A DNA stretch of 64,000 bases from an uncultured Acidobacteriota bacterium (GTDB taxonomy: Bacteria; Acidobacteriota; Polarisedimenticolia; J045). The stretch spans positions 352,001-416,000 of the forward strand of contig CAVPCQ010000006.1 of assembly GCA_963702425.1 (NCBI GenBank), given 5' to 3'. Each line of letters begins with the position of its first letter. Position 1 is the stretch's first letter. Made by a program: the position numbers and the translations under genes. Of the stretch, positions 29,419 through 57,009 are shown one piece after another. The notes beneath the pieces were generated by a model that saw only the letters and a program-made list of their open reading frames with translations, had not been told where the DNA came from and ran no database searches.

Positions 29419-29499
29419 GCGCGGGAGCCGCGAGGGGCCCCCTGGCGAGTGGGTCGCAGGCTCCAACACTCGCCAGGGGGCCCCTCGCGGCTCCCGCGC
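29419..29499 (+). repeat. Long hairpin repeat, copy A1
   Basis: 33-bp perfect stem around loop GGTCGCAGGCTCCAA. Confidence 0.95.
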
Positions 29500-29520
29500 G
29501 GCGCACCGCCACTGAAAAAA

Positions 29521-29652
29521 TGGGAGAGAAGTCTGTACAGCGACCGGGACGCGTTCGGTCGGTGTGGGAGAGAAGCCTGTACGGCGACCGGGACGCGTTC
29601 GGTCGGTGTGGGAGAGAAGCCTGTACGGCGACCGGGACGCGTTCGGTCGGTG
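29521..29652 (+). repeat. 3 x 44-bp tandem repeat
   Basis: TGGGAGAGAAGCCTGTACGGCGACCGGGACGCGTTCGGTCGGTG; unit 1 differs at two positions. Confidence 0.95.
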
Positions 29653-29691
29653 TAAAGATTCTTCTTTTTCTCTTTTTCCGGGAGCGGGATT

Positions 29692-29786
29692 GGCGGCCGG
29701 CTGCGGGCGGGGAATGTCCCCCCGGCGAGTGTTGGAGCCTGCGACCCACTCGCCGGGGGGACATTCCCCGCCCGCGGCCGGCCGCC
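29692..29786 (-). repeat. Long hairpin repeat, copy A2 (inverted relative to A1)
   Basis: 40-bp stem with one mismatch around the same loop in reverse orientation. Confidence 0.95.
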
Positions 29787-30965
29787 CTAGCGCGCCCCCC
29801 TCGCCGTTCCGAACCACGCCGACGGGTCCTCGGGCCTGCCGTCGACGCGCACCTCCAGGTACAAGTACGGCCCGCGCACGGAACCGGTGTCGCCGACGCG
29901 GCCGAGGCTCTCGCCCTGCGCGATCGGGTCGCCGGCCTGCACGATCGCGGCCGAAAGGTGGCCGTAGACCGTGTGCACCGCGCTGCCGTGGTCGAGCACC
30001 ACGACGAGGCCGTAGCCCTTCAGCCAGCCGCTCCACGCGACGCGCGCGTCGAACGGTGCGCGGACCACGGCCCCGAACGGCGCCGCGAGGTCCCAGCCCG
30101 GGTGCGGCAGGCGCGTGCCGAAGCGCGGATCGACCCGGTCGCCGAACGGCTCGTCGATCGTCCCTTCCTCGACCGGCAGGCGGAACACCCCTCTGAATCG
30201 CCGGGCGTCGAGGCGCACGGGGTCGGCGTCGGGAACGCCGGCGAGCACCGACTCCAGGCTGCCGCGCGCGCGCTCCAGCTCGACGACCGCCTGCTCGCGC
30301 ACCGCCGTCTGCTGCCGCATGTCGGCCAGCAGGTCCTGGCGCGCGCGGATCGACTGGTCGAGCGCGGCCCGCGCGGCGAGCGCGTCGTCCTGCAGCCGCG
30401 CGACCTCCGCCTGGCGGGTCCGCTGTTCGGCCTCGAGCGCCGCGAGTCGGGCCTCGCTGTCCCGGATCGCGCCGACCTCGCCCTTGTAGCGCCAGGCCAG
30501 CTCGTGCGTGCTACGCAGGCCGGCGCCCAGGGACTGGGTGTCGGCCGCCCCGAGCACCGGCTTGAGCCGGCCGAGCGGCCCCGCCTGCTGGAGCAGCCGC
30601 GCGATCGTCGACAGCCGGACCCGTCCCGCGTCCAGCCGCTCCTGCGCCGCGGCGCGTTCTGCCGCCGTCGCGGCCAGCGCCGACTCGGCCTGCGTCCGCT
30701 CCAGCGTCAGCTCCTCGATCCGCGCGTCCTGGAAGCGCGCCTCCGCGGCCAGCGCGTCGAGCCGCGCCAGCACGCCCGCCGAGTCCTTGTCGAGGCGCTC
30801 CCGCTCCGCCGACAGCCGGGCGACTTCCTCGCGCACCCGCTGCAGCTGGCGCTCGGGGTTCTCGTCGACCGGCCCGGGCCCGGGGCCGGCGCCGAACGCG
30901 GCGGCGACTGCCGCCGCGAGCACGAGGGCCGCGGCGGGCAGGCGACGCGCAGGGCCCGCTACCAG
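29787..30965 (-). CDS. EnvC-like murein hydrolase activator (coiled coil plus M23 domain); start uncertain
   Basis: Signal-like N-terminus, long coiled coil, HPGWD, GYGLVVVLDHG, YGHL, LYLEVR. Confidence 0.85.
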   Translation of the reverse strand: MVAGPARRLPAAALVLAAAVAAAFGAGPGPGPVDENPERQLQRVREEVARLSAERERLDKDSAGVLARLDALAAEARFQDARIEELTLERTQAESALAATAAERAAAQERLDAGRVRLSTIARLLQQAGPLGRLKPVLGAADTQSLGAGLRSTHELAWRYKGEVGAIRDSEARLAALEAEQRTRQAEVARLQDDALAARAALDQSIRARQDLLADMRQQTAVREQAVVELERARGSLESVLAGVPDADPVRLDARRFRGVFRLPVEEGTIDEPFGDRVDPRFGTRLPHPGWDLAAPFGAVVRAPFDARVAWSGWLKGYGLVVVLDHGSAVHTVYGHLSAAIVQAGDPIAQGESLGRVGDTGSVRGPYLYLEVRVDGRPEDPSAWFGTARGAR

Positions 30966-33223
30966 ATCACCCTCCCGTCGAGCTCGGCGTCGGGCTTGAG
31001 GTCGAGCGTGCCGAGAATCGACGGTGCGACGTCGATGATCCGGGGGTCGTTGACCTTGAGCTTGCGGTTCACGATCAGGATCCCGGGCACGAAGCTGGGC
31101 TCGAGCGAGCAGTGGTCGCCGGACCAGACGCGGTCGTTGTTCTCGAACACATCGGTCGCCAACCCTCCCAGCGTATCCTGCCACGAGACGCGGTAGTTGA
31201 GCCGGTTGGAGGGCCTGAGGTCGGGGATCTTGTTCGGGTCGTAGCCCTTGTAGAGCTCGTCGCGCCGGTAGACCCTGTAGACTGGCTTCTCGCCGGTCAC
31301 CGGGTCGATCTCGTTCTGCAGCCCTTCCTGCAGCGCCTTGACGACCTCCTCGTACTCCTGGCCGGGCATCACGATCCCCTGCGGCTCGCGGCCGACGAGG
31401 TTGATGTAGAGCGAGCCGAGGCCCATCGCCCAGGCCTTGGTGCGGCTCCAGTCGATGCCCGAGAAGACGTCGACGCCGGAGACGTCCTTGTCGAAGAGCT
31501 GTTCGAGGCTGCGGCTGCGAGGCTGCCCCTTCAGCGCCAGGTAGCCGTTCTTGTAGAGCCAGGTGTTGTAGTTGATCTGGCGCCGGAAGGACGAGAAGCC
31601 GTGGTCGGACAGGACGATGAACAGTGCGTCCTCGCCGGCCAGCTCGTGCGCGCGGCCGATCAGCTCGTCCATCCGCCGGTAGGTGGCCTCCATCGCCGCG
31701 CGGTACTTGGCGGCCAGCTCCGGCTTGTACATCGGGTGCCCCTCGTCCAGCTCGTGCCACAGCATGTGCCCGGCGCGGTCGGGGAAGTCGAAGATCTGGA
31801 CCAGGACGTCGGCGTCCTGCTGCGCGAACGAGGCCTCGAGGATCTTCGTCGAAGCGTCGACGGTGAACCACATGTCCTCGAGGAACAGGTCGATCCCGCC
31901 AACTCCCGAGGGATAAGACCAGGTGTCGATCGTCCAGCCGATCGTCTTGAACAGGCCGATGTCGCCGGACAGCTTCTTCGCCCAGTCCGGCGGCCAGGAA
32001 TAGGCCACCGGGTGACACGAGGGGTGGAAGTTGACCGGCGAGAGGTAGAGCTCGATCTCCGGCTCCAGCTTGATCAGCTTGAAGCGCCCCATCCCGCGCA
32101 GCGGCTGCAGCCAGTCGACGAGCCAGTTCAGCGGGAAGTCGAAGACCACCCAGTCCGACCACTCCCCCGGCTCGAGCGTTCCCTTCTGGCCGCTGACCTC
32201 CCAGGCCAGCGCGCTGTCGGTCACGTCGAGCTTCATCGGCAGGTCGATTCGCTTGAGCGTTCCCTTCGCCTCGAGCGCGGTCGTCAGCTCCTTCTCCTTC
32301 GCCTTGCGGTCGGCGGTGGAGAGGCCCTCCTTCGCCCAGCCCTCGCGCGCGCGGTCGAGCACGTACTGGTAGAAGGGATAGTTGAACGGCCCGACGACCG
32401 TGGTCTCGATCGCCCCGCGCTTGGCCGGGAGCCGGATCGGCTCGAGGCTGAACTGGTTGTCGCCGAGCTGAAACTGCGGATCGGAGGTGTAGTACGACGG
32501 CGTCCCGACGCGGCCGCGCATGTCGGGCACGCCGAGGCCCGAGATCATCGTCGAGCCGGAGGGAAGCGGCTCGGCCGGGAAGGTGACCGGCACGTGGGTG
32601 ACCTTCACCTTCATGCCCGCCTGCGCGGCAAGCGTCCAGAACGGCGTCCCCTGGCGGTTGTTCGTCGCCGACGGGACGTCCGCGGGCAACAGGTTCCCGA
32701 GCGGCCGGGCCAGCCCGCCCGCGATCCCGACCGTCGCGATCAGCGCGCCGGCCAGCGCGGCCAGCCAGCGGACGCGGAGCAGCCGGAGCACGAGCAGCAG
32801 CACCAGGCCGACGAGCAGGCCGGCCATCCCCGCCAGGAACAACCCGTTCTTCTCGCGGAACAGCAGCGGCGTCTTGCCCGGCGTCGCCAGCGCGAGGTCG
32901 GGCACGTACTGCCCCTCGCGGCGCTGCAGGAAGTCGAAGATCTCGGTCCGCCCGGGGTTCAGCCCGGTGGCGAAGGTCGACCAGGAGACCGGGGTCTGCG
33001 GCGGATTCGTCGGCATCAGCGAGGAGTAGGTCCCCTCCCGGGCGATCGCCGCGACGTGAGGGAGCTTCCCCTGCTGGAGGTAGTAGTTGACCAGGTTGGG
33101 ATCGGCGCCGTCGAAGCCGATCACGACGACCTTGGGCTTGCCGGCCGCCGCCCCGACGGAACCGGCCGCGAGCGCGAGCGCACCCCCCAGGACGAGACAC
33201 CACCCCCACGCCGAACGCCGCAT
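30959..33223 (-). CDS. Alkaline phosphatase superfamily (nucleotide pyrophosphatase/phosphodiesterase-like) protein
   Basis: VVVIGFDGAD, PPQTPVSWSTFATG, DRAGH, LSDHGF, WSGDH, DVAPSIL. Confidence 0.9.
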   Translation of the reverse strand: MRRSAWGWCLVLGGALALAAGSVGAAAGKPKVVVIGFDGADPNLVNYYLQQGKLPHVAAIAREGTYSSLMPTNPPQTPVSWSTFATGLNPGRTEIFDFLQRREGQYVPDLALATPGKTPLLFREKNGLFLAGMAGLLVGLVLLLVLRLLRVRWLAALAGALIATVGIAGGLARPLGNLLPADVPSATNNRQGTPFWTLAAQAGMKVKVTHVPVTFPAEPLPSGSTMISGLGVPDMRGRVGTPSYYTSDPQFQLGDNQFSLEPIRLPAKRGAIETTVVGPFNYPFYQYVLDRAREGWAKEGLSTADRKAKEKELTTALEAKGTLKRIDLPMKLDVTDSALAWEVSGQKGTLEPGEWSDWVVFDFPLNWLVDWLQPLRGMGRFKLIKLEPEIELYLSPVNFHPSCHPVAYSWPPDWAKKLSGDIGLFKTIGWTIDTWSYPSGVGGIDLFLEDMWFTVDASTKILEASFAQQDADVLVQIFDFPDRAGHMLWHELDEGHPMYKPELAAKYRAAMEATYRRMDELIGRAHELAGEDALFIVLSDHGFSSFRRQINYNTWLYKNGYLALKGQPRSRSLEQLFDKDVSGVDVFSGIDWSRTKAWAMGLGSLYINLVGREPQGIVMPGQEYEEVVKALQEGLQNEIDPVTGEKPVYRVYRRDELYKGYDPNKIPDLRPSNRLNYRVSWQDTLGGLATDVFENNDRVWSGDHCSLEPSFVPGILIVNRKLKVNDPRIIDVAPSILGTLDLKPDAELDGRVIW

Positions 33224-33283
33224 GCCACCCTCTCCTACCCCGAGACGAACGCGGAAATGTACCATCGGGCGCGGAGACCGCCC

Positions 33284-34111
33284 ATGGAGAGGCCCTTACC
33301 GATCGTGAAGGCGATGTCCCATCCGCGGGCGGCGCTGGCTCGCGAGCTCGCGCGCGGCGTTCGGGAGCGACGGGCGGCGGGGATGTTCCTGGTCGAGGGG
33401 CCGCGGGGGCTGTCGGAAGCGCTCGACGTCGGCGCCGCGCTGGCGTTCGTGCTGGTCGCCGCCGGCCGGGCGGAGCGCTCTCCGACGCGCGAGGTCGTCG
33501 TGCGCTGCCGGCAGGCCGATGTCCCGGTCGAACTGGTCCAGGACGCCTTGCTCGAGCGGTTGGCGCCGTCCGAGACGCCGAGCGGCCTCTTGGCGGCCTG
33601 CGCCTTGCCTGCGGCCTGCGACCGCCCGGAAGCGGTCCTCGCCGGTGCGAGCGGGATCGTGGTGCTGGCGGTGCGGGTCCAGAACCCTGGAAGCGTCGGG
33701 ACCCTGGTCCGCAGCGCGGCCGCATTCGGGGCCGACGGGCTCGTCGCCGCGGGGGGAGCCGACCCGTGGGGACCCAAGGCGGTCCGCGCCAGCGCCGGCG
33801 CGATCCACCGCCTGCCGGTCGCGCGCGCGGAGGGGGGCGAAAGAGACCCCGCGCTGGCCGCGGGACTGCGCGACGGCGCCTTCCGGCTGGTCGCCGCGGT
33901 CCCGCGCGGCGGGACCGACCCGGCCGCGGTCGACTGGTCCGGGCCGGTCGCGCTCCTGCTCGGGGCCGAGGTGGCGGGCCTGCCGCGGGAGCTCGTCGAG
34001 CGGGCCGAGACGGTCACGATCCCGATGGCGGCCGGAGTCGAGTCGCTCTCGGTGCCGATCGCCGGATCGATCCTGCTCGCGCTCGCCGCCTCGTCCGGCC
34101 GCGCGCGCTAG
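33284..34111 (+). CDS. TrmH family RNA methyltransferase
   Basis: FLVEG, VQNPGSVGTLVRSAAAFG, LGAEVAGL, IPM...ESLSV. Confidence 0.92.
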   Translation: MERPLPIVKAMSHPRAALARELARGVRERRAAGMFLVEGPRGLSEALDVGAALAFVLVAAGRAERSPTREVVVRCRQADVPVELVQDALLERLAPSETPSGLLAACALPAACDRPEAVLAGASGIVVLAVRVQNPGSVGTLVRSAAAFGADGLVAAGGADPWGPKAVRASAGAIHRLPVARAEGGERDPALAAGLRDGAFRLVAAVPRGGTDPAAVDWSGPVALLLGAEVAGLPRELVERAETVTIPMAAGVESLSVPIAGSILLALAASSGRAR

Positions 34112-36345
34112 GCCGAGGCCGCCGCGGAGATCGCGCGCGGCCAGGTGACCCGGAAGGTCGAGCCGTGACCGACGGAGCTCTCGACCTCCACCCGGCCGCC
34201 GTGGCGCAGCACGACGCTGCGCACGAGCGCGAGCCCGATCCCGGTGCCCGGCATCGCCGCAGCCCCGCGGCCGCGGTAGAAGCGGTCGAAGATCCGATTC
34301 TGCTCGTCCGGCGCGATCCCGATCCCCGTGTCCGTGAACTCGAGCGTCACGGCGTCGCCCGGACCGGGGCGAACGGCAACGAGCACGCTGCCGCCAGAGC
34401 GGTTGAACTTCACCGCGTTCCCCAGCAGGTTGTCGAGCACGCGGGCCAACCCCTCGCGCTCGGCGACGACTGCCAGGCCGGACGGAACCGGCCGGGCCTC
34501 GAGCCGGACGCCGCGCCGCACCGCCGCGGGGTGGACGCGGTCGAGCGCCTCCTGCAGCGCGCCCGCGAGATCGACCGGCTCGGCCTCGAGCGGGCTCGAG
34601 CGGTCGGTGCGGGCCAGCGCGAGCAGGTTGCCGATCATCTCCACCATCCGGTCGACGTTCCGCAGCGCCACCTCCAGCCCGCGGCGCTGCTCGTCGTTGA
34701 CTCGCCCGAGACGGCCCTCGAGGACCATCTGCGTGTAACCGCGGATCGAGACCAGCGGGGTCTGCAGCTCGTGCGACACGTCGGTCAACAGTTGGGCGCG
34801 GGCGCGGTCCAGCTCCAGCAGCTCGTGATTCACGCGGTCCAGCTCGGCCGTCTTCTTCTCGAGATCGCGGTGAACGGATGAGATCTCCTCGTAGGCCCGC
34901 TGCAGCGCCTCGCGCGAGCGGGTCATCGCCGCGGCGTCGGCCTCCAGCCGGCGCTCCGTCGCGCGGTGGTGCGTCACGTCGCGGACGACGACCAGGCGCC
35001 CCAGCAGCTCGCCCTCCTCGCCCGCGACCGGGCGGGCGACGATCTCGACGCTCTGCGGCTCGGGCCCGCGGGTGTCGAACGTCGCGAGGTGGTCGCCGCC
35101 GGGTGCCGCGGCGGCCCGCTCGAGGAATCCCACGCATCCGGCGGCGTCGCGGAATCGTTGCGCGAGCAGGGCGACGAACTCGGCCTCGCTCGCCGCGAGG
35201 AGACCCACCGCGTCCATCCCGACCAGACTCGCCATCCGCCGGTTGACGAGCCCGACCCGCCACTCCGCGGCCTCCGTCCCGGAGGGGGCGAGCAGGGCGA
35301 CTCCTTCCGCGACGGCGTCGAGCACCGAGCGCAGGCGGGCCTCGTGGGTGCGCGCACGGCGGCGGGCCACCTGCCCGGCGGCGGCGTCGCGCAGCGTGAC
35401 GACCGCCTCGCCGGGAAACTCGGGCCCCGCGGAGACGGCCTCGAGCTCCACTTCCCTCGCCCGCACCCGGCCGCCCAGCGGCTGCAGCCGCGCCCGGACT
35501 GTCCCGCCCGTGTCCCCGCTTCCGGCGCGGGCCACGCGATCGAGCGCGACCAGCAGCGATTCGGCGCCAAAGAGGTCGCGCAGCAGGTGACCGGCCGGAT
35601 CGCCGCCGTACCAGGCGCGCGCCGCGGGGTTCGACTCGCGGACCGTGCCGCCGGCGACGACCAGGACCCCGTCCGCGACGCCGGCGAGGATGGCACGGGT
35701 CCGCGCGAGGGCCTTCGCCGGGGACTCGCCCTCCGGCTGCGCCTCGGCCTGCGGATCGATCCAGAGCGCGATCCCGTCGATCGGGTCGTCGACGAAACCG
35801 ACGTGGACCTGGGCCGTGATCGGAGCGCCGCCCAGGCGGCGCATCTCGCCTCGGATCGCCAGCGGCTCGCGCCGCCGGCGCGCGTCGAGCAGCGCCACGG
35901 CGACCTCGCGCCACGATTCCGGGGTGAAGAGCAGCTCCGCCTTGCGCCCTTCGAGGTCTGCCACCCGCTCCCCGGCCGCCCGTGCGTAAGACTCGCCGAC
36001 CGCCGCCACCAGCAGATCGCGATCGAGCAGCACCAGCCCGGGTCCGCTCATCGCTTCCGTCGCCGCGCCGAAGCGCGCCAGCCGGCGCTCGCGCGGGCCC
36101 CGCCGGTCGGCCAGCTCGTGGGCGAGCGCCGCGACCTGGTGCAGGGCGCGCTCGGCCGGATCGCCCGGCGTGATCTCCGACTCCTGCGCGCGTCCTTCGA
36201 CGACCTCGGCCAGGGCCTGCTCGACGCGCCGCAGTCCACGCGGCCGCGAGCGGCGACCGAGGTACCAGCCCAGCGCCAGCAGCAGCGCCGCCGCGAGCGC
36301 CCCGACGAGCGCCGGCCACCAGGCCGCGAGTGCGCCCGCCGTCAC
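34108..36345 (-). CDS. Multi-PAS sensor histidine kinase
   Basis: N-terminal TM; VSHELQTPL H-box, NLLGNAVKF, DTGIGI, GTGIGL. Confidence 0.92.
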   Translation of the reverse strand: MTAGALAAWWPALVGALAAALLLALGWYLGRRSRPRGLRRVEQALAEVVEGRAQESEITPGDPAERALHQVAALAHELADRRGPRERRLARFGAATEAMSGPGLVLLDRDLLVAAVGESYARAAGERVADLEGRKAELLFTPESWREVAVALLDARRRREPLAIRGEMRRLGGAPITAQVHVGFVDDPIDGIALWIDPQAEAQPEGESPAKALARTRAILAGVADGVLVVAGGTVRESNPAARAWYGGDPAGHLLRDLFGAESLLVALDRVARAGSGDTGGTVRARLQPLGGRVRAREVELEAVSAGPEFPGEAVVTLRDAAAGQVARRRARTHEARLRSVLDAVAEGVALLAPSGTEAAEWRVGLVNRRMASLVGMDAVGLLAASEAEFVALLAQRFRDAAGCVGFLERAAAAPGGDHLATFDTRGPEPQSVEIVARPVAGEEGELLGRLVVVRDVTHHRATERRLEADAAAMTRSREALQRAYEEISSVHRDLEKKTAELDRVNHELLELDRARAQLLTDVSHELQTPLVSIRGYTQMVLEGRLGRVNDEQRRGLEVALRNVDRMVEMIGNLLALARTDRSSPLEAEPVDLAGALQEALDRVHPAAVRRGVRLEARPVPSGLAVVAEREGLARVLDNLLGNAVKFNRSGGSVLVAVRPGPGDAVTLEFTDTGIGIAPDEQNRIFDRFYRGRGAAAMPGTGIGLALVRSVVLRHGGRVEVESSVGHGSTFRVTWPRAISAAASA

Positions 36346-36394
36346 CGCGTCACCTCGCCCGCTCCCGCCCCGCACCGTGCGCGGTCGGTCGCGC

Positions 36395-37099
36395 TCATGT
36401 CGCGTCCGGGGCGGAGGTTTCGACGGCGTGCCCGCGCCGCTCGGCCGCGGCCCGCACGAAGCGCGCCAGCTGGGCGCTCGCCTCGACCCCGAGCGGGAGG
36501 AACTGCAATCCCCAACCGCGCTCGCCGCCGCGCCCGTCGCCTTCGCGAACGATCTCGATCGCGACCTCGATCGGGCGTGCACCGTTCTGGAAGTGCAGCA
36601 CGCCCGGCTGTTCGCGCGGCGGATCGTCGAAGCGCACGAACGCGCCGTCGAGCGACAGCTCGACGCAGCGCCCGGCGAAGCCCTTGCCTTCCTGCTGCAG
36701 CTCGCAGGGCACGTCCACCACTCGGCGCGCGCCGCGGCGGGCGTTCCCGCTCAGCAGCCGACGGACCGCCTGGTCCAGTTCGTGGCGCGTGACCGGCTTG
36801 GAGAGGAACTCCGCCACGCCGCACTCGGTGCAGCGCTCGCGGTGGAGCGAGAGCCCGATGTAGAGGACGGGGATGCCGGCGGTGTCCGGGGCGTCGCCGA
36901 GGCTGCGGCAGGCCTCGAAGGCCTCGGGAAAGAACTCGCCTTCCTCGATCACCACGAGGTCGGGGCGCGAGGACCGCGCCCGCTCGACGACGTCGTCGCC
37001 CGGCCGCAGCAGCGCGACCTCGACCGCCGCCCGGCCGAGCGGCGTGGACCCGATCTCCGCCAGGAGCCGCACGTCGTCGACGATCAGGACGCGTGTCAT
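36395..37099 (-). CDS. Atypical receiver domain plus PilZ domain protein
   Basis: MTRVLIVDD, FLSKPV; RRGARR and ELSLDG PilZ-like motifs; GGAGG RBS. Confidence 0.75.
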   Translation of the reverse strand: MTRVLIVDDVRLLAEIGSTPLGRAAVEVALLRPGDDVVERARSSRPDLVVIEEGEFFPEAFEACRSLGDAPDTAGIPVLYIGLSLHRERCTECGVAEFLSKPVTRHELDQAVRRLLSGNARRGARRVVDVPCELQQEGKGFAGRCVELSLDGAFVRFDDPPREQPGVLHFQNGARPIEVAIEIVREGDGRGGERGWGLQFLPLGVEASAQLARFVRAAAERRGHAVETSAPDAT

Positions 37100-37318
37100 C
37101 GATCCCTCGACGCCCTCCCGGCGTTCCCGGCGCCCCGCAGGCGCCGCCTCGTCCGAACCGGGCGAACGGGATAGAAAGCGCTTGAAAAGCCTTGCGCGGC
37201 AAGCGTTCTCGCCGATCGACCCCGCTGCCGGACCGGAATGTACCACCCTCGGGGGGGGCGAACAATCCGGTTTCGGGCGCGCCGCACGGACGTTCGCGAG
37301 ACGGGCTGAGAGGAAGGG

Positions 37319-38467: not shown

Positions 38468-38543
38468 TGGAGCGGGCGACGAGGCTTGAACTCGCGACCC
38501 TCAGCTTGGGAAGCTGATGCTCTACCAACTGAGCTACGCCCGC
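38468..38543 (-). tRNA. tRNA-Gly (CCC)
   Basis: GCGGGCGTAGCTCAGTTGGTAGAGCATCAGCTTCCCAAGCTGAGGGTCGCGAGTTCAAGCCTCGTCGCCCGCTCCA. Confidence 0.97.
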
Positions 38544-49324: not shown

Positions 49325-49765
49325 ATGACGGCGGCGGACCGGCGAAACGAAGACGAGCTGCTGCGCCGGTTGCGGGCGGACGCGCAGCTTCTGGCCCAGT
49401 CGTACGGCCTGCCGCTCCGTTCGATCGCCAAGACCCGCCGCGACGCCCGCCTCTACGGGACGTGCGACGCCGGCGGGCAGATCCGGATCCGGCTGCGCTC
49501 GCGGACGTCGGGCGGGTTCCTCAAGTACTCCAGCCTCGTGGCGACGCTCTGCCACGAGCTGGCGCACCTGCGCCACTTCCACCACGGCCCGAGCTTCGTG
49601 CGCTTCTACCGCGAGCTGCTCGAAGCGGCGCGCGCCCGAGGACTTTACCGGCCCGCCTCGCCCGCCGCGCTGCGCGCGGCGCGCGCCCCCCGCCCCGGCC
49701 CGGTGCGCGAGGACCTCGCCGCCTCCGCCCCGCAGCGCCCTCGCCAGTTGCCGCTGTTCTGGTAG
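49325..49765 (+). CDS. Small zinc metalloprotease (WLM/YgjP/SprT-like)
   Basis: TLCHELAHLRHFHHGPSF. Confidence 0.8.
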   Translation: MTAADRRNEDELLRRLRADAQLLAQSYGLPLRSIAKTRRDARLYGTCDAGGQIRIRLRSRTSGGFLKYSSLVATLCHELAHLRHFHHGPSFVRFYRELLEAARARGLYRPASPAALRAARAPRPGPVREDLAASAPQRPRQLPLFW

Positions 49766-49769
49766 CCGC

Positions 49770-51035
49770 TCAGGCCAGCCCGTCGAGGTTCTCCCCCTTC
49801 GGGATCGCCACCAGTCCGCCCTCCGTGACGGTGAACCGGCGGCGATCGGCGTCCGGATCGATACCGACCTGGAAACCAGCCGGGATCCGGACCCCCTTGT
49901 CGACGATCGCCCGCTTCACGACGGCGTGCCGCCCGACCTCGACCCCGTCCATCAGGATCGAGTCCTCGACCAGGCTCCACGAGTTGATCCGGCAGCCCGG
50001 CCCGAGGATCGAGCGCTCCACGTGGCCGCCGCTGACGATGCAGCCCGGCGACACGAGCGAATCGTGCGCCTCGCCGATCCGCCCCTTCTCACCGCCCGCG
50101 AACACGAACTTGGCGGGTGGAGCCTGGATCGCCGCCGAGCGGATCGGCCAGGAGCGGTCGTAGAGGTTGAACTGCGGGGTGACCGAGATCAGGTCCTGGC
50201 TGGCGTCGAAGTAGGCGTCGAGCGTCCCGATGTCCATCCAGAACGGGGTCGGCGCACTGCCCGCGCCGCGAAACACGTGGGCCTGGACCCGCGCCCCGGC
50301 GCGCACGAGGCCCGGCAGCACGTCGTGGCCGAAGTCGTGCTGCGTGTCATCGCGCCGCGCGTCGCGGCAGACCGACTGCACCAGCACGTCGGTGCGGAAC
50401 AGGTAGACCCCCATGTTGGCCACCACGCCGGGTCCCTCCGGGTCGAGGTCCTGCGGCTTCTCGCGGAACCCGGTCACCGCCTGCCCGGGACCCAGTTCCA
50501 GCACGCCGAAGCGCGAGGCGTCGCGTGCCGGAACCTCGAGCACCGCGATCGTGACGTCCGCTTCCCCGGCGAGGTGCTCGGCCAGCATGTCGCGGTAGTC
50601 CATCCGGTAGATGTGGTCGCCGGAGAGGATCAGCGTATGCGCCGGTCGCTCCTCCTCGAGCGTGTAGACGTTCTGGTAGATCGCGTCCGCCGTTCCGAGG
50701 TACCAGGTGCTTCCCACGCGCAGCTGCGGCGGGATGGTGTAGATGAACTCTCCCAGCTCGGGCGCGAACAGGTCCCAGCCCTCCTTGATGTGCCGCATCA
50801 GGGAGTGCGCCTTGTACTGCGGCAGCACGCAGATCCGCTTCAGCCCCGAGTTCACGCAGTTCGAGAGCGTGAAGTCGATGATCCGGTAGGTCCCTCCGAA
50901 CGGGACCGCGGGCTTGCTGCGGTCCTTGGTCAGCGGGTAGAGCCGTTCCCCCTTGCCGCCGGCCAGCACGAAGGCCAGGACCGCCTTGAGCGTGTCGGGG
51001 TGGAGCGAGGCGTGGCCTCCGGCGGAGCGATCCAT
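49770..51035 (-). CDS. glgC: Glucose-1-phosphate adenylyltransferase
   Basis: VLAGGKGERL, RSKPAVPFGG, GTADA, LSGDHIYRMDY, DFGHD. Confidence 0.97.
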   Translation of the reverse strand: MDRSAGGHASLHPDTLKAVLAFVLAGGKGERLYPLTKDRSKPAVPFGGTYRIIDFTLSNCVNSGLKRICVLPQYKAHSLMRHIKEGWDLFAPELGEFIYTIPPQLRVGSTWYLGTADAIYQNVYTLEEERPAHTLILSGDHIYRMDYRDMLAEHLAGEADVTIAVLEVPARDASRFGVLELGPGQAVTGFREKPQDLDPEGPGVVANMGVYLFRTDVLVQSVCRDARRDDTQHDFGHDVLPGLVRAGARVQAHVFRGAGSAPTPFWMDIGTLDAYFDASQDLISVTPQFNLYDRSWPIRSAAIQAPPAKFVFAGGEKGRIGEAHDSLVSPGCIVSGGHVERSILGPGCRINSWSLVEDSILMDGVEVGRHAVVKRAIVDKGVRIPAGFQVGIDPDADRRRFTVTEGGLVAIPKGENLDGLA

Positions 51036-51036
51036 C

Positions 51037-51417
51037 TCAGAGCTCTCCCGGGCCGAGGTGCTCACGCTCCTCGAGCAGCTTCCGCACCGTGCGCTTGAGC
51101 TCCTCGGTGTCGGGGCCCTTCGTGACGTAGGCGTCGGCGGCCCACGAGGTGAAATCGTCGCGGTAGGAATCGAATGCCGTATTGAGCACGATCGGCACGC
51201 GGCGGTCCTTGTCCAGGATCCGCGCCATCGCCTCGAGCCCGTTCATACCCGGCATCCGGATGTCCATCACGATCAGGTCCGGGCGCTGCTGTTCGAAGGC
51301 CCGGATCCCCTCCTCCGCGGTCGCCGCCTCGACGACCTGGTAGCCGTCGTCCTCCAGCTCCCGGCGATAGAGGAGCCTCAGGTGCCGTTCGTCATCCACG
51401 ATCAGGATTCGTCGCAT
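51037..51417 (-). CDS. Single-domain response regulator
   Basis: ILIVDDE, DLIVMDIRMPGMNG, YVTK. Confidence 0.93.
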   Translation of the reverse strand: MRRILIVDDERHLRLLYRRELEDDGYQVVEAATAEEGIRAFEQQRPDLIVMDIRMPGMNGLEAMARILDKDRRVPIVLNTAFDSYRDDFTSWAADAYVTKGPDTEELKRTVRKLLEEREHLGPGEL

Positions 51418-53557
51418 CGTCGCTCTCCTCCGGGGTGCTCTCCGGGGTCGTCTCCGCGGGCTCGTGCGGCCGCAGCAGGATCCGGAACCGCGCCCCCTCG
51501 CCGGGGCGACTGTCGGCGCCCAGTGTGCCCCCGCACTGCGCCACCAAGCGCTTGCTGAGCGGCAGTCCGAGCCCCGTCCCCCCCACCTTCGTGGTGAAGA
51601 ACGGCTCGAAGATCTTATCCAGCCGGTCGGGCTCGATGCCCGGCCCGTTGTCCTCGACCACGAGGTGAACCGCTTCCTTGAGCCGCTGGGCCCGCACCGT
51701 CACCTTGCCCCCCTCGCCCACCGCATCGAAGGCGTTCGAGAGCAGATTGTCGAGGACCTCCAGCATCGTGTCGCGGTCGCCCGTGACCGGCGGCAGGTCG
51801 GGCTCGACCCGGGCCGACAGCCGCACCCGCCGCTCGAGCGCCAGGTCGCGGTAGCGGGCGACGACGGCGCGCACGAGGTCGCCCGGGTCGAGCGATCGGC
51901 CGGCCGGGGCCCGCGCGACGCGGACCTCCTGCCGGATCCGCTCGAGAATCGCCTCCATCCGCCGCGTTTCGTCGAGCACGATCTGCACGTCCGCGGCCCG
52001 CGGGTCGTCCTCCGGGAACTGTCGCGCGAGCCGGCGTGCGAAGCCGCCGACCACCGAGAGCGGGTTCCGGATCTGGTGCACGATCTCGGCCGCCAGCTCG
52101 CCGATCGCCGACAGCCGCTCGGCCTTGAGCACCTGCACCTGCAGGTTGCGCACGCGCGCGCTGGCCTCGCGCAGCTCCTCGAGCCGGTTCGAGAGCTCGT
52201 CGTGCAGGCGCGCCCGCTCGACCGCCCCGGCGGCGGTGGAGGCGATCATCGCCGCCAGCGCCAGCTCGTCCTCGTCCGGGAACCCGGCGTCGGGTGCCAC
52301 TGCGCCGAGCAGCACGCCGAGGTGTTTTCCCTGGTCGATCAGCGGGGCCAGCACGACGGGGCACCGCTCGAGCAGCGGCCCGAGAGACGGCTCGGCCGCA
52401 TCGAGCACCCCGGCCGGGTAGATCTGCACCGGCGACGCCCCCGCCAGGGCGAGCACGAGCGGGTGGCTCGCCTGGTCGAGCGGGACCGCGAGCCGGCGCG
52501 CCAGGGTCTCGATCATCCGGTCGGCGGCGGTCGGCGGGTCGAACGCGAGGGCTTCGAGCTCGTGCCCGGCGGCGCCCCGCCGCGGCGGACCGGCCGACTC
52601 GGGCGCCCGTCGCGCGAGGCGCCCGCGCAGCATCCCCTTGTCCTCCTCGGCCAGGAAGAGTGCGGCCGCGTGCATCCCCAGACCGCCCGGGTGGACCGCG
52701 GCGGCCAGCACGACGCGCAGCACCCGGTCCAGCCGCGCCGTCCGAGAGAGGACCAGTCCCATCTCGCGCAGTAGGGTGAGTTCGCCGACCTTGCGGGCCA
52801 GCGCCTCGTTCAGCGACCGTTGCCGGGTGACGTCGGTCAGGACCGCGACGGCCGCAGCGAGGCCGTGGTCGGGCCCCGGGACGGCAGCGAGGCAGGCGCG
52901 CACGACCCGCCGCTCGACGCCGCTCCCGAGCACCAGCTCGCGCTCCTCCACCGGGCGATGGGCGGCCAGTTCGGCGGCGGTCGGGAAATCGGCGGCCGGG
53001 TAGAGCCCTTCCGGGAAGACCGTGGGGTAGGGCGCGCCGCGCAGTTCCCACTCGCCTCGGCCGAGCAGCGCCGACGCCGCCGGGTTGGCGGCCACGACCC
53101 GCAGCTCGCGGTCGAGCAGCAGAACGCCAGCCGGGACGTGCCGGAGCCCTTCGGCGAGCACCCGCTCGCGGAAGACCTCGTAGGCCTGTTCACCGTCGGA
53201 GAGTGCGGTGTCGATCACCGCCTCGAGGATCGCCTCCGGTCCGACCCGGACCTGGACGAGCAGGCGCCGCGGTCCGGTCGCGCCGGGCCGCCCCTCGGGG
53301 ATCCAGGAACGGTGGGCGACACCGGTCGAGAGCACCTCCTCGCGCCGGCAGGTCCGGCAGTCCGCATCGCGCCGCCAGAGCGCGCCGTGACAGTCCGCGC
53401 CGATCAGCTTCGGGCCCCGCGACCGGATCAGCGACGGGCTGGCCCAGAGGACCTTGCGACCGGGACCGATCAGCGCCAGCTGCACGCCGTTCGCGTCGAG
53501 CACCTCGAGCAGCTGCTCGTGGGACGGTGCCTCGGTCGGAACGTCGCGCTCGCTCAC
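51392..53557 (-). CDS. Cytoplasmic PAS/GAF sensor histidine kinase
   Basis: IVHQIRNPL, NLLSNAFDA, DNGPGI, FFTTK, GTGLGL. Confidence 0.92.
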   Translation of the reverse strand: MSERDVPTEAPSHEQLLEVLDANGVQLALIGPGRKVLWASPSLIRSRGPKLIGADCHGALWRRDADCRTCRREEVLSTGVAHRSWIPEGRPGATGPRRLLVQVRVGPEAILEAVIDTALSDGEQAYEVFRERVLAEGLRHVPAGVLLLDRELRVVAANPAASALLGRGEWELRGAPYPTVFPEGLYPAADFPTAAELAAHRPVEERELVLGSGVERRVVRACLAAVPGPDHGLAAAVAVLTDVTRQRSLNEALARKVGELTLLREMGLVLSRTARLDRVLRVVLAAAVHPGGLGMHAAALFLAEEDKGMLRGRLARRAPESAGPPRRGAAGHELEALAFDPPTAADRMIETLARRLAVPLDQASHPLVLALAGASPVQIYPAGVLDAAEPSLGPLLERCPVVLAPLIDQGKHLGVLLGAVAPDAGFPDEDELALAAMIASTAAGAVERARLHDELSNRLEELREASARVRNLQVQVLKAERLSAIGELAAEIVHQIRNPLSVVGGFARRLARQFPEDDPRAADVQIVLDETRRMEAILERIRQEVRVARAPAGRSLDPGDLVRAVVARYRDLALERRVRLSARVEPDLPPVTGDRDTMLEVLDNLLSNAFDAVGEGGKVTVRAQRLKEAVHLVVEDNGPGIEPDRLDKIFEPFFTTKVGGTGLGLPLSKRLVAQCGGTLGADSRPGEGARFRILLRPHEPAETTPESTPEESDDATNPDRG

Positions 53558-53692
53558 GTCGATCCTCACGCGCCGCGGGGGTGCGCGTTGCCATTGTAGA
53601 CCCGGCCCGGTGTAATCTGTCGCTCCCGTCCCACCCCCACGCGCCCGGCGCAGCGTCCCGGGCCCGATCGTCGTTCGCCCAGGAGGTACCGC

Positions 53693-55330
53693 ATGCCCAA
53701 CGGGATCTATCGCGTTCCGTCCCCCGTCAACGAGCCGGTCAAGGGCTACGCGCCGGGCTCGCCCGAGCGGCGCGAACTCGGCGCCGCGATCGCGGCCCTC
53801 TCGCAGGAGGTGATGGAGATCCCCTGCGTGATCGGCGGCCGCGAGGTGCGCACCGGGCGGATCCTGGAACAGCACGTTCCCCACGCGCACCGGCGCGTCG
53901 TCGCCCGCGCCCACCAGGCCGGCCCGCGCGAGATGCAGGCCGCGATCAAGGCCGCACGCGAGGCCTGGCAGACCTGGTCGCGCACGCCGTGGGAGGCGCG
54001 CTTCGCGATCTTCCTCAAGGCTGCCGACCTGCTGGCCGGGCCGCGCCGGATGGCCGCCAACGCGGCGACGATGGTCGGCCAGTCCAAGACCTCGCACCAG
54101 GCGGAGATCGACGCGGCCGCGGAGCTGATCGACTTCTGGCGCTTCAACCCGCGGTTCGCGGAGACGATCTACGCCGACCAGCCGATCTCCTCGCCCGGCA
54201 CCTGGAACCAGCTGGAGTACCGCGCGCTGGAAGGATTCGTGCTGGCCATCACGCCCTTCAACTTCACCTCGATCGGCGGCAACCTCCCGACCGCCCCGGC
54301 GATGATGGGCAACACCGTGCTCTGGAAGCCGGCCTCGACCGCGATCGCGTCGTCGTGGGTCGTTTTCAAGGTGCTCGAGGAGGCCGGCCTGCCGCCGGGC
54401 GTGATCAACTTCATCCCCGGCCCCGGTTCACTGGTCGGGCCGATGGCGATCGCCAGCCCCGATCTCGCGGGGATCCACTTCACCGGCTCGACGGGGGTCT
54501 TCCACTCGATCTGGGAGGGCGTCGCCGCCAACATTCGCCGCTACCGGAACTACCCGCGCCTGGTCGGCGAAACGGGCGGCAAGGACTTCGTCTTCGTCCA
54601 CTCGTCGGCCGACCCGCTGGCCGTCGCCACGGCGCTGGTCCGGGGGGCATTCGAGTACCAGGGCCAGAAGTGCTCGGCAGCGAGCCGCACCTACGTTCCC
54701 CAGTCGCTCTGGCCGAAGGTCCGGCGCGCGCTGGTCGAGCAGCTGCGCGAGGTCCGCGTCGGCGACCCGACCGTCGCCACCAACTTCATGGGCGCGGTGA
54801 TCGACAAGGCGTCCTACCAGAACCTGACCGGCGCGATCGCCTCGGCCAAGCGCTCGACCGCCTGCTCGATCGTCTTCGGCGGCGAGTACGACGCGCGCGA
54901 GGGCTGGTTCATCCAGCCGACGGTGGTGCAGGTCACCGACCCGAAGCACCGGCTGATGAAGGAGGAACTGTTCGGACCGGTGCTCGCGGCGTTCGTCTAC
55001 CCCGACCGCGAGCTGGACGCCGCGCTCCAGCTCTGCGACAGCGCCAGCCCCTACGCGCTGACCGGCGCGGTCTTCGCGCGCGACCGGCAGGCGATCCAGG
55101 CGATCGCCAACTCGCTGCGCCACACGGCCGGCAACTTCTACATCAACGACAAACCGACCGGCGCGGTCGTCGGACAGCAGCCGTTCGGCGGCGCGCGCGC
55201 CTCGGGCACGAACGACAAGGCCGGCTCGTTGCTCAACATGATCCGCTGGACGTCGCCGCGGGCGATCAAGGAGACCTTCGTCCCGGCGACTCACTTCGCC
55301 TACCCGTTCCTCGCCCCGGACCAGGACTGA
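53693..55330 (+). CDS. pruA: L-glutamate gamma-semialdehyde (P5C) dehydrogenase
   Basis: PFNFTSIGGNL, FTGST, GETGGKDF, FEYQGQKCSA, SGTNDKAG. Confidence 0.95.
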   Translation: MPNGIYRVPSPVNEPVKGYAPGSPERRELGAAIAALSQEVMEIPCVIGGREVRTGRILEQHVPHAHRRVVARAHQAGPREMQAAIKAAREAWQTWSRTPWEARFAIFLKAADLLAGPRRMAANAATMVGQSKTSHQAEIDAAAELIDFWRFNPRFAETIYADQPISSPGTWNQLEYRALEGFVLAITPFNFTSIGGNLPTAPAMMGNTVLWKPASTAIASSWVVFKVLEEAGLPPGVINFIPGPGSLVGPMAIASPDLAGIHFTGSTGVFHSIWEGVAANIRRYRNYPRLVGETGGKDFVFVHSSADPLAVATALVRGAFEYQGQKCSAASRTYVPQSLWPKVRRALVEQLREVRVGDPTVATNFMGAVIDKASYQNLTGAIASAKRSTACSIVFGGEYDAREGWFIQPTVVQVTDPKHRLMKEELFGPVLAAFVYPDRELDAALQLCDSASPYALTGAVFARDRQAIQAIANSLRHTAGNFYINDKPTGAVVGQQPFGGARASGTNDKAGSLLNMIRWTSPRAIKETFVPATHFAYPFLAPDQD

Positions 55331-55380
55331 GCCCTTGCGGCAGGGACGCGGCCCGCGCCGCGTCCCTTCGGAGGTCCCCG

Positions 55381-56586
55381 ATGACTCGCGCCACCCTCCC
55401 GCTCCGGACCAGCAAGCGCGTCGAGGAGGTCACCTACGCCGTCCGCGACGTCGTGCTCTGGGCGCGCCAGGCCGCGGCCGCCGGCAAGGACATGATCTAT
55501 CTCAACATCGGCGACCCCTGCCAGTTCGACTTCCAGACGCCACCGCACGTCGTCGAGGCGATCGTCCGCGCCCTACAGGAGAACCGCACCAGTTACACCG
55601 CCTCGGAGGGGATCCGCGAGGCGGTCGACGCGATCCGCGCCGACGCCGAGGTCCGCAAGGGGATCCGGGGAGTGCGCAGCGTGCTGGTCGGCAACGGCGC
55701 CTCGGAGCCGATCGAGCTGCTGCTCACCGCGCTGCTCGACCCGGGCGATGCCGTGCTCGTGCCGAGCCCCGGGTACCCGCTCTATACCGCGGTGCTGGCC
55801 AAGCTCGGCGCCCGCGCGATTCCCTACTACCTCGACGAGGCGAACGCCTGGCAGCCCGATCCGGACGAGCTCGCGCGCACCGTCGACCTCGGCACGCGCG
55901 CCATCGTGCTGATCAACCCGAACAACCCGACCGGTTCGGTGGCCGGCCGGGAGACGCTCCTGCGGGTCCTCGAGATCGCGGCCCGCCACGGGCTGCTCGT
56001 GCTGTCGGACGAGATCTACGACCGGATGCTGCTCGATCCGGAGACCGCGTACGTCTCGACCGCGTCGCTCCGGGACGACGTCCCGGTGGCGACCTTCTAC
56101 GGCCTGTCCAAGGTCTGGCTCGGACCGGGACTGCGGATCGGCTGGTGCGTGCTCTCGGGCCCGGAAACGGCCGTGGCGCCGCTCGACGACGCGATGATGC
56201 GGCTCGCCCGCGCCCGGCTCTGCGCCAGCCACCCGGTGCAGTGCGCGATCAAGCCGGCGCTCGAGGGGCCGCAGGACCACATCGTCGCGGCCAACGCCAA
56301 GCTGCGCCGGCGGCGCGACATCACGGTGGAGAAGCTCCGCGCGATCCGCGGCTTCTCGGTCGTGCCACCGACCGCCGCGTTCTACGCCTTCCCGCGCTTC
56401 ACGCTGCCGATCGATGACGTCGAGCTGGTGAGGAGATTGGCGCTGGAGGAGGGGGTCGTGCTGGTGCACGGGTCGGGTTTCGGTCAGAAGCCGGGGACCC
56501 AGCACGTGCGCATCGTCTTCCTGCCGACCGAAGCTCAGCTCGACGAGGCGTTTCGGCGGATTGGTTCGTTTGTGGCTCGGTTGTAG
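55381..56586 (+). CDS. Aminotransferase class I/II (AlaA-like)
   Basis: YLNIGDP, INPNNPTG, SDEIYD, GLSK...GLRIGW. Confidence 0.93.
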   Translation: MTRATLPLRTSKRVEEVTYAVRDVVLWARQAAAAGKDMIYLNIGDPCQFDFQTPPHVVEAIVRALQENRTSYTASEGIREAVDAIRADAEVRKGIRGVRSVLVGNGASEPIELLLTALLDPGDAVLVPSPGYPLYTAVLAKLGARAIPYYLDEANAWQPDPDELARTVDLGTRAIVLINPNNPTGSVAGRETLLRVLEIAARHGLLVLSDEIYDRMLLDPETAYVSTASLRDDVPVATFYGLSKVWLGPGLRIGWCVLSGPETAVAPLDDAMMRLARARLCASHPVQCAIKPALEGPQDHIVAANAKLRRRRDITVEKLRAIRGFSVVPPTAAFYAFPRFTLPIDDVELVRRLALEEGVVLVHGSGFGQKPGTQHVRIVFLPTEAQLDEAFRRIGSFVARL

Positions 56587-56608
56587 GCGGCGGGATGGGC
56601 GCTGGGGC

Positions 56609-56687
56609 GGTGCGGAGGCGGATGGACCCCCTGGCGAGTGGGTCGCAGGCTCCAACACTCGCCAGGGGGTCCATCCGCCTCCGCACC
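56609..56687 (+). repeat. Long hairpin repeat, copy B1
   Basis: 32-bp perfect stem around loop GGTCGCAGGCTCCAA. Confidence 0.95.
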
Positions 56688-56928
56688 TCCGTCGCCGGCA
56701 CCGCGCGCTGCGCCTCCGTAGAGAGTGATTGAGAGGGAATGTTCTCCGCGCGCGATGCGTGACGGACGGCGAATACGTCACGCTCGGAGGGGTGGTCGCA
56801 CCAGCGCCACGGAGGAGATGGGAGAGAACGTATTCACCGCTCGGTTGGCGTCCCCGTGCGATGCATACACTTTTCTATTATTTTATTGGTGCGAGCCGGT
56901 GGGGGCGGGCGGTTCTTCCCTGCGAACA

Positions 56929-57009
56929 GGGCGCGTGACGGGAAGTGCCCCCTGGCGAGTGTTGGAGCCTGCGACCCACTCGCCAGGGGGCACTTCCCGT
57001 CACGCGCCC
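56929..57009 (-). repeat. Long hairpin repeat, copy B2 (inverted relative to B1)
   Basis: 33-bp perfect stem around the same loop in reverse orientation. Confidence 0.95.

Follow-up and report, generated by a model that had tools for sequence, protein, structure and literature searches.

A genus-specific foldback element of uncultured Acidobacteriota with a conserved hairpin apex and drifting, yet paired, stems

A stretch of 64,000 nucleotides from the genome of an uncultured Acidobacteriota bacterium (GenBank assembly GCA_963702425.1, contig CAVPCQ010000006.1, positions 352,001 to 416,000), which is called the window in the following, contains four long hairpins with a common tip. They form two inverted pairs, and each pair lies in the gap between two convergent genes. 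The analysis revealed that the pairs are the ends of a small foldback insertion element, which is specific for one genus and has an unusual division of constraint: the tip of each hairpin is conserved, and the stems drift in sequence, yet stay paired. It is akin to repetitive extragenic palindromic (REP) elements and to MITEs (miniature transposable elements with inverted repeats), from which it stands out by this division. An initial annotation of the window had described the hairpins as copies of a dispersed element with an invariant core and loop and with unrelated, but fully paired, outer arms, and this interpretation was partly supported.

The observation itself was confirmed. The 25-mer GAGTGGGTCGCAGGCTCCAACACTC is present without any mismatch at four sites of the window, i.e., at 29447 and 56636 on the plus strand and at 29727 and 56957 on the minus strand, and it matched in none of 100 shuffled windows, so that the four hairpins with a common core and loop are real and beyond chance. 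The stems were measured by extending the pairs outward from the 15-nt loop, which resulted in lengths of 33, 40, 35 and 33 bp with 0, 1, 1 and 0 mismatches, respectively (Table 1), and the annotated self-complementarity was thus verified. The folding energies of the 99-nt hairpin segments ranged from -87 to -102 kcal/mol. In the whole genome 39 hairpins with a stem of at least 24 bp and a loop of 3-24 nt were found, and 7 of these belong to the paired-hairpin family. Also the arrangement was as annotated, with a plus-oriented hairpin on the left and a minus-oriented hairpin on the right of each pair, gaps of 192 bp (unit A) and 241 bp (unit B) between the hairpins, and convergent neighbouring genes, whose four stop codons are all TAG, three of them within GTAG.

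The hairpin pairs are the ends of larger foldback units of 290-440 bp, four of which (units A to D, with A and B in the window) are present in the genome from which the window was taken (G000). All eight half-units of G000 can be aligned from the outside to the inside. A half-unit has a length of about 190 nt. It begins with an outer flank (in one class of ends of the type GGTTCGCGCTGGGGC), which is followed inward by a hairpin (about 95 nt), a spacer (about 30 nt), a tract rich in purines (for example GGGAGAGAAG or AAGAAGAAGAGAAG) and a module of about 40 nt with the sequence GTATGCAKCGCACGGGGACGCC...GGTGAATAC. Because all eight halves share this one plan, the unit is, judged by its sequence, a head-to-head dimer of the half-unit. 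The single hairpin had been taken as the unit of the family, and this had to be revised: the unit is the whole inverted dimer including its interior. The short units A and D have one central module, which is common to both halves, while the long units B and C have one module per half. In every unit the two hairpins carry the asymmetric loop in opposite orientations.

Folding of unit D yielded three hairpins, with -211 kcal/mol for the plus strand and -201 kcal/mol for the minus strand and a z of about -10 on both. The two loops of a unit are exact complements in units A and B, and in unit B of a relative from the same genus (G004) both loops carry the same A-to-G change. These features would be in accordance with a non-coding RNA gene that spans the whole unit and gives rise to a structured transcript of about 300-400 nt, in which terminal hairpins with kissing complementary 15-nt loops are combined with a central stem. 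We regard this as very improbable. Scans in and beside units A and B did not reveal promoter-like or terminator-like sites, for the interior only a weak consensus fold was obtained on either strand (energies of -30 and -33 kcal/mol, covariation terms of -0.55 and +2.08), and loop variants in unit D and in hairpin C_R of G004 are not compensated in the partner loop. A complement to the loop of at least 13 nt was not found elsewhere in the genome. At the gathering score none of the hairpins matched an Rfam family; the only Rfam matches in the window were three tRNA genes (9459-9532, 14780-14853, 38471-38543 (minus strand)). In the E-value mode the hairpins matched only generic long-hairpin models of miRNA precursors, far below the threshold. 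A trans target of the loop was rejected as well, because outside of the elements the genome contains no match of at least 14 nt and a single same-sense 13-mer. The same is true for a conserved small protein in the interior: a 43-aa open reading frame (ORF; MQRTGTPT...) at locus C lacks its ATG in a metagenome orthologue, and its counterpart at locus B stops after 10 codons.

To which extent the family is distributed can be seen from several searches. G000 comprises 5.1 Mb in 42 contigs and is 91% complete. An exact or near-exact core is present at six sites, including a third pair on another contig (locus C), and a fourth, diverged pair (locus D) was found with a covariance model built from 20 hairpins. 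At locus D the centre of the loops differs (GGTCGC-TTCG-CTCCAA and GGTCGC-GCCG-CTCCAA). A pattern search for the core in 41 related genomes was positive for five, i.e., G000 and all four others of its genus (G001 to G004), and negative for all 36 genomes from other genera. At the family level the covariance model matched 6 of 23 genomes; the sixth match (G021) was discarded, as it scored 32 bits, scored equally on both strands and apparently lies in coding sequence. At the class level, with Infernal's stricter filters, 5 of 119 genomes matched at E <= 1e-5, all of them from the one genus and none from the remaining 114. The five genomes of the genus contain 4, 3, 1, 1 and 1 units, which corresponds to eight hairpins in G000, six in G004 and two each in G001 and G003; G002 has two hairpins, one of which is degenerate and one of which is cut by a contig end. 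Seven matches were obtained in metagenomes, of which four are contigs that carry the element and three are coding sequence. A genome collection contained 39 matches to an 18-mer; three of them were opened, two turned out to be the element (an inverted pair in metagenome-assembled genomes (MAGs) of Acidobacteria/Acidobacteriota) and one coding sequence, and most of the 39 appear to be chance matches. Collections of viral contigs, plasmids and phages did not contain a match to the element, and an origin from a phage or plasmid was rejected on this basis. Taken together, among the genomes searched the family is, as far as these matches tell, confined to one genus of uncultured Acidobacteriota.

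Several contigs of MAGs and metagenomes (L010/L048, L056, L060, L061) end inside or at a hairpin apex, and the repeat seems to break short-read assemblies. The contigs of four DNA sequencing runs covered the sites in fragments only, and none of them spanned the element. This could be taken as an indication of an assembly artefact, and, as long hairpins are presumably common between convergent genes in GC-rich genomes, it could also be assumed that the hairpins are independent ordinary terminators, whose apexes have no common history. Such explanations are hardly tenable and were rejected: identical apexes of 25-41 nt occur at eight sites, while none would be expected, the same loci recur in five assemblies and four metagenome contigs, and the homology extends into the flanks and the interior.

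The comparison of orthologous loci showed where copies had been inserted. Locus A is empty in two genomes of the same genus, in which 22 nt separate the stop codon of trxB from that of the M23 peptidase gene; the contig of a third genome ends before the informative point. The element is also missing at this locus in other genera that have the same convergent gene pair. Locus B is empty in three genomes of the genus, with 30-32 nt between the stop codons. Locus C, which is located between panD and a conserved non-coding stretch with its own T-run terminator, is filled in all five genomes of the genus and in one metagenome contig, and it is empty in four outgroup genomes with the same neighbours, where the T-run terminator is located almost directly after the panD stop codon. 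At the empty sites only tiny GC palindromes are present. Because of these short empty sites at loci A, B and C, the copies can be regarded as insertions into gaps between convergent genes, and the presence of empty sites in sister species bears out the annotation as a non-autonomous repeat element. The alternative outcome, i.e., that only the four copies of the window would exist and that empty sites would not, did not apply, as further copies and empty sites were both found.

Locus D is filled only in G000. In G004 (L113 1999-3038) a cassette of a 98-aa ORF and a gene for a 219-aa protein with an AbiEii toxin domain occupies the space between the same two boundaries, and the same 19 nt after the stop codon, which form the outer flank of the unit, have been retained. 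As the apex of unit D is the most diverged one, this unit is read as an old copy that was lost by the relative and not as a recent insertion. The GTAG, which had been annotated as a possible tag of the element, was found to belong to the host. Element-free genomes have the same GTAG stop codons (of trxB, the aminotransferase gene and the gene convergent to it), and therefore GTAG, which is 0-32 nt away from the hairpin, is not part of the element; furthermore, one orthologous copy abuts TGA, and so does the G000 copy on the side of panD.

Two observations were made beside these loci. The stretch to the left of unit C (L006 1184-1470, with counterparts in L129, L131, L133 and L144) is a non-coding sequence of about 200-280 nt with a canonical T-run terminator, which converges on panD. 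It is conserved across several genera, did not match Rfam even at E <= 1, and may be an undescribed small RNA or 3'-UTR. Unit A of G004 (L009 1600-2260) contains about 560 bp of extra sequence, which increases the spacing of the hairpins to about 750 bp and has imperfect direct repeats (about 18-22 bp, derived from the end of the module) at its boundaries. A 162-aa ORF in this unit was considered as the missing enzyme and rejected; it has no Pfam match, one near-identical relative and a hydrophobic C-terminal half.

The various parts of the element evolve very differently. Between orthologues the apex is 93-100% identical. At locus C, both 41-nt apexes retain an identity of 95-98% between the most distant orthologues, while identities are 64-69% for the interior, 52-62% for the left arms, 80-90% for the right arms, 70-72% for the left flank and 91% for the coding DNA of panD. 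The conserved part thus is indeed the apex, as had been annotated, but the truly invariant stretch is narrower than the annotated core and comprises GGCGAGTG, GGTCGC, CTCCAA and CACTCGCC, while three to four central bases of the loop and the outer pairs of the core vary. Gene conversion within a genome cannot keep the apex identical across species, and therefore purifying selection in place was inferred from these identities.

In contrast, the outer arms diverge about as fast as the interior: the identity between orthologues is 0.73-0.96 for the arms, 0.70-0.89 for the interior and 0.85-0.95 for third codon positions, in a comparison that leaves out one flank of locus B with 0.77 and one frame-broken pair. 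According to the initial annotation the arms differ completely between copies. Within the window this nearly holds true, with pairwise identities of 0.59-0.73 compared to 0.60 +/- 0.08 for shuffled arms. It does not hold true for the family, because the arms of A_L and D_L are 0.91 identical, above the 99th percentile of the shuffles (0.77), which is exceeded by only 2 of 28 arm pairs. This identity indicates that arms are inherited; they are not unrelated, but homologous and diverged. The arms are not built of short tandem repeats: TRF did not detect an array in the arms of units B, C and D at a minimum score of 30, and in unit A it detected a single period of 19 nt at the flank of A_L.

In spite of the divergence the arms are kept paired. 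When 19 hairpins were aligned, pairing was found in 97.4% of 624 cells, and two-sided changes had occurred in 21 of 33 pairs. Changes on both sides were counted in 111 cells, compared to 29.9 +/- 4.4 in shuffles (none of 500 reached 111) and to 10-21 in controls with slid partners. The alignment had been fitted to the structure, which favours pairing, and model-free comparisons anchored at the loop agree with it. In the loop-anchored comparison of G000 and G004, 11 pair changes were two-sided and 2 were one-sided, when A_L, A_R, B_L, B_R and C_R were included and C_L of G004, in which a bulge of 1 nt shifts the register, was dropped.

The types of change were also informative. G.U pairs occur in only 2 of the 624 cells, and A.C mismatches, which are G.U pairs on the other strand, in about 5. 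By our reading, pair switches of the transversion type (GC<->CG, AU<->UA) and of the transition type (AU<->GC) amount to about 12 each. A_R, B_L and C_L have undergone symmetric losses of complete base pairs, and one bulge has remained unsymmetrised. The rarity of G.U pairs, the balanced switch types and the symmetric loss of pairs point to a constraint on the arms that is equal on both strands. Terminators of Bacillus cereus, which are selected at the RNA level, show a different pattern. For these, excerpts of an earlier study (PMC5381666) give a fraction of 4% G.U among stem pairs, 79% AU<->GC among the switches, a route via G.U for 89.5% of those switches for which an intermediate was inferred, and stems that evolve more slowly than loops.

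We give about an even chance to the view that the units are low-copy elements of the REP doublet (REPIN) or MITE type, with an apex that is selected as a recognition site and with arms whose symmetry is preserved on both strands at the level of DNA. The copies entered short 3'-3' gaps between convergent transcription units. After insertion, purifying selection holds the apex, i.e., the inner stem of 8-13 bp and the flanks of the loop (GGCGAGTG-GGTCGC-N3-4-CTCCAA-CACTCGCC), which would be the putative sequence-specific site of a trans-acting factor that reads a folded single strand. The outer 19-27 bp of the stems drift at an approximately neutral rate, yet stay Watson-Crick paired equally on both strands. 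Such an upkeep of the DNA might be achieved by correction from arm to arm via template switching within the palindrome and/or by selection for a hairpin that can form on either strand. Templated correction of quasipalindromes from arm to arm would result in a near-neutral rate with very few mismatches. The element would thus act like hairpins of the REP/REPIN type, which serve as substrates in single-stranded DNA, and not like an RNA motif of one strand.

A more far-reaching version, which we consider rather doubtful, is an undescribed system in which a trans-acting factor other than a REP-associated tyrosine transposase (RAYT) reads the apex, and the long arms are actively re-symmetrised by hairpin-templated synthesis during mobilisation or by template switching during replication. 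If this was true, active re-symmetrisation would explain how a perfect palindrome can drift at a neutral rate, and the host would keep a self-correcting DNA hairpin at convergent gene ends for a strand-symmetric job, e.g., as a barrier for forks, topology or transcription.

Alternatively, the element could have been co-opted as a cis-acting RNA element of convergent genes, i.e., as a 3'-end structure without U-tract that serves as terminator, exonuclease block or insulator. Each of the facing genes would be read into the proximal hairpin, and its loop (GGUCGC..CUCCAA) would be seen by a loop-specific RNA-binding protein; pairing would be perfect on both strands because both strands are transcribed. 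The genomic position is in line with this possibility. All four units of G000 and all orthologues are located in 3'-3' gaps, six of the eight outer unit ends are 0-32 nt away from a stop codon, and the inverted dimer presents the same hairpin to both incoming transcripts. The element adds strong hairpins to sites that have only tiny GC palindromes when empty, and also those genomes that have only one copy have conserved the apex in place. The purine tracts presumably resemble (ARN)n motifs. In addition, bidirectional terminators are more constrained than one-way terminators according to the excerpted text of PMC5381666. However, each hairpin is followed by purine-rich sequence, a U-tract is missing after all of them, and the consensus scan did not reveal a terminator-like site. 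At locus C, a T-run terminator of the left neighbour itself precedes the hairpin, the G.U pairs are as rare as described above, and perfect duplexes of 33-40 bp would generally be expected to be cut by RNase III. A role at RNA 3'-ends is thus possible, but it is the less probable of the two, and a strand-symmetric role of the DNA is favoured moderately. The preference is only moderate because the counts are small and in part depend on the alignment, and because transcription of both strands also generates symmetry.

Several points weigh against the favoured reading. The first group concerns the enzyme. Domains of transposases, recombinases or reverse transcriptases were not found among 43 ORFs of the window, which had been picked greedily and many of which did not have any match, in accordance with the annotated lack of a cognate enzyme in the window. 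A mobilising enzyme was not found beside any copy, and an insertion sequence (IS) with these ends did not turn up in model searches of the family and class genomes or in the viral, plasmid and phage collections. A copy beside a RAYT or TnpA gene, as had been proposed, was looked for with PF01797 in the five genomes of the genus and was not found: there was one strong match in G000, which is flanked by unrelated repeats, and none in G001. The second group concerns the sites and the copies. A comparison of filled with empty sites revealed neither a target-site duplication nor the exact ends of the element. The copy number is very low, and in three species a single copy with a still conserved apex is present, which is at least as compatible with a host function as with mobility. 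Positive supercoils, which oppose the extrusion of cruciforms, are expected to result from convergent transcription. Strand-symmetric pairing would also follow from read-through transcription of both strands by the facing genes. The counts of mismatch types and switch types are small, partly depend on the alignment, and leave out the bulged C_L of G004. Furthermore, the interior may not be neutral, and the neutral rate of arm drift is therefore approximate.

The enzyme search also bears on the question whether the units are ordinary REP/REPIN elements that are mobilised by a RAYT, i.e., by a HUH transposase of the Y1 type, which seems improbable to us. G000 does encode a Y1_Tnp protein. The units resemble REPINs as described in excerpts of PMC3116915, as they are extragenic inverted doublets, have a spacer that is less conserved than the ends, and preserve the stem pairing by changes on both sides. 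The 41-nt apex alone, with a stem of 13 bp and a loop of 15-16 nt, is within or near the size range of REPs (PMC3733652, in excerpts). However, the repeats around this Y1_Tnp gene are different ones, of the type GGGGACAGC..GTTAGCCGGTAAGCCG, and G001 contains the element without having a Y1_Tnp match. The palindromes lack a GTAG or CGTC tag, the GTAGs being stop codons of the host, which empty sites have as well, and stems of 32-40 bp, a number of only eight hairpins and spacers of 192-241 bp do not fit either. Moreover, the genome has a separate family of classical, GTAG-tagged REPs. Its sequence GGGGCCGGCCTCCGTGCCGGCCC, often after GTAG, has 223 matches in G000 at <=2 mismatches, many of which form inverted doublets, whose stems are conserved and whose loops (12-24 nt) vary, and some of which are clustered in tandem. 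Examples are C6:109339-109405 and C6:229352-229416, and none is listed inside the window. The initial view that the paired hairpins are neither classical REPs nor an Rfam family was thus upheld.

The Y1_Tnp gene itself (G000:C16:177685-178014; L119 1141-1863, minus strand) encodes an IS200-like protein of 240 aa. Repeats of about 35 nt (GGGGACAGCAACCGTTAGCCGGTAAGCCG type), which are inverted and doubled in tandem, are located on both sides of the gene in an arrangement like that of a RAYT or TIRYT, and a few related long hairpins are present elsewhere in the genome.

The coordinates of the element and its neighbouring genes are summarised in Table 1. A location at a replication terminus or fork trap was considered for the units and not supported: the GC skew of contig C6 switches near 170 kb, the units are at 381 and 408 kb, and contig C12 does not show a switch. 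The peak of the cumulative GC skew near 170 kb of contig C6 is outside of the window, about 210-240 kb away from units A and B, and may mark a replication terminus or origin. At locus B of G004 (L111), the aminotransferase gene matches only residues 1-143 of a 159-aa query, and the last 100 codons are out of frame compared to the gene of the window, which could be a frameshift or an assembly error close to the 3' end.

Table 1. Positions of the hairpins, the complete insertions, their internal parts and the flanking genes in the window.
Feature	Position	Strand	Remarks
Thioredoxin-reductase-like gene (Pyr_redox_2)	28470..29387	+	Flanks unit A; start approximate; outside of the element
Unit A, whole insertion	29388..29786		Between the stop codon of the trxB-like gene (TAG, 29385-29387) and that of the M23 peptidase gene (CTA, 29787-29789)
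Period-19 repeat, 2.5 copies	29393..29438	+	Covers the outer flank as well as the beginning of A_L's 5' arm
Hairpin A_L	29419..29499	+	33-bp stem, no mismatch, loop GGTCGCAGGCTCCAA
Three tandem 44-bp copies of purine tract and module TGGGAGAGAAGCCTGTACGGCGACCGGGACGCGTTCGGTCGGTG	29521..29653	+	Small hairpin within each copy
Pyrimidine-rich tract TTCTTCTTTTTCTCTTTTTCC and spacer	29654..29691	+	On the minus strand, corresponds to the right half's purine tract
Hairpin A_R	29692..29786	-	40-bp stem, one C.A mismatch, same apex inverted; abuts the stop codon of the M23 gene
Gene with Peptidase_M23 domain at its 3' end	29787..33725	-	Flanks unit A; outside of the element
Class I/II aminotransferase gene	55486..56586	+	Flanks unit B; start approximate; outside of the element
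Unit B, whole insertion	56587..57026		Between the stop codon of the aminotransferase gene (TAG, 56584-56586) and that of the 524-aa ORF (CTA, 57027-57029)
Hairpin B_L	56606..56690	+	35-bp stem, mismatch at pair 33; the 32 perfect pairs correspond to 56609-56687
Best-kept module of unit B	56829..56889	-	A-rich purine tract followed by GTGTATGCATCGCACGGGGACGCCAACCGAGCGGTGAATACG; common to loci C and D
Hairpin B_R	56929..57009	-	33-bp perfect stem, same apex, inverted
524-aa ORF without Pfam match	57027..58601	-	Flanks unit B; outside of the element

Palindromic repeats of the REP, REPIN and MITE types are common, their function is still a matter of debate, and most studies deal with high-copy families of Proteobacteria. 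Literature searches did not reveal anything specific on comparable elements of Acidobacteria, or on families that combine a conserved apex with variable stems and are located at convergent genes. The family described here is very small and belongs to a poorly known phylum, and its history can be read copy by copy from dated insertions, empty sites and orthologues in five species. Its two constraints, the selection on the sequence of the apex and the strand-symmetric pairing of arms that are free in sequence, are cleanly separable. It is therefore tractable for two questions, namely whether such hairpins act as DNA or as RNA, and whether palindromes are kept perfect through templated correction. 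From a practical point of view, the repeat element explains the tendency of assemblies from these genomes to be interrupted within the apex.

Bacterial MITEs, e.g., Correia/NEMIS of Neisseria and ERIC/IRU of enterobacteria, are non-coding, have lengths of 100-400 bp and inverted ends, are intergenic and polymorphic, and can form long hairpins. The units of 290-440 bp share with them the small size, the lack of a conserved ORF, inverted ends with an identical 41-nt core, and the polymorphism of presence and absence at the orthologous loci A, B and C. They differ in that each end is a complete hairpin of 95 nt, the copy number is far lower, and the apex is under selection in place; furthermore, neither a target-site duplication nor a parent IS was recognised. 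Elements of the IS200/IS605 family have hairpins at both ends in the same orientation on one strand. Palindromes derived from them are probably similar to the element in that a folded single-stranded hairpin would be recognised by features of its loop and stem. In contrast to them, the hairpins of the element are inverted, and neither TnpA nor TnpB is encoded beside any copy.

Terminators of GC-rich bacteria that lack a U-tract ('I-shaped') or are bidirectional have the convergent position, strong hairpins and a pairing constraint on both strands in common with the element (PMC5381666, in the excerpts considered). They are locally evolved, unique sequences, whereas the element forms a family of dispersed copies, which have an invariant 41-nt apex and an interior and are polymorphic for insertion. 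An intrinsic terminator consists of a GC-rich hairpin followed by a U run, and the sequence after the hairpins of the element is purine-rich instead.

The excerpts of PMC3733652 (including its Table 1) describe REPs as palindromes of 20-40 bp with stems of 5-13 bp and loops of 2-20 nt, and together with those of PMC3116915 they name as hallmarks of REPs and REPINs a tag (GTAG or CGTC), spacers with lengths of 20-100 bp, copy numbers from tens to thousands and an association with RAYTs. In line with the same excerpts, the element shares with REPs, bacterial interspersed mosaic elements (BIMEs) and REPINs the extragenic inverted palindromic doublets, conserved ends with a less conserved spacer, compensating changes on both sides, the frequent location at 3' ends of genes, vertical inheritance and long persistence. 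In contrast to the short stems of REPs, its stems have 32-40 bp within hairpins of 79-95 nt, and only the 41-nt apex is near the size range of REPs. It is conserved at the apex and variable at the base of the hairpin, and it has no tag. There are eight hairpins in G000 instead of tens to thousands, a cognate RAYT was not found for them, and inverted doublets are formed in four of four units with spacers of 192-241 bp (about 750 bp in one ORF-bearing orthologue) instead of 20-100 bp. Of the published features of REPs taken together, only the layout as an inverted doublet and the compensated spacer are shared. The element is thus most like the REP, REPIN or MITE type, and at the same time its long stems, its low copy number, the missing tag and the lack of a cognate RAYT among the genes searched place it outside of the REP/REPIN family proper.

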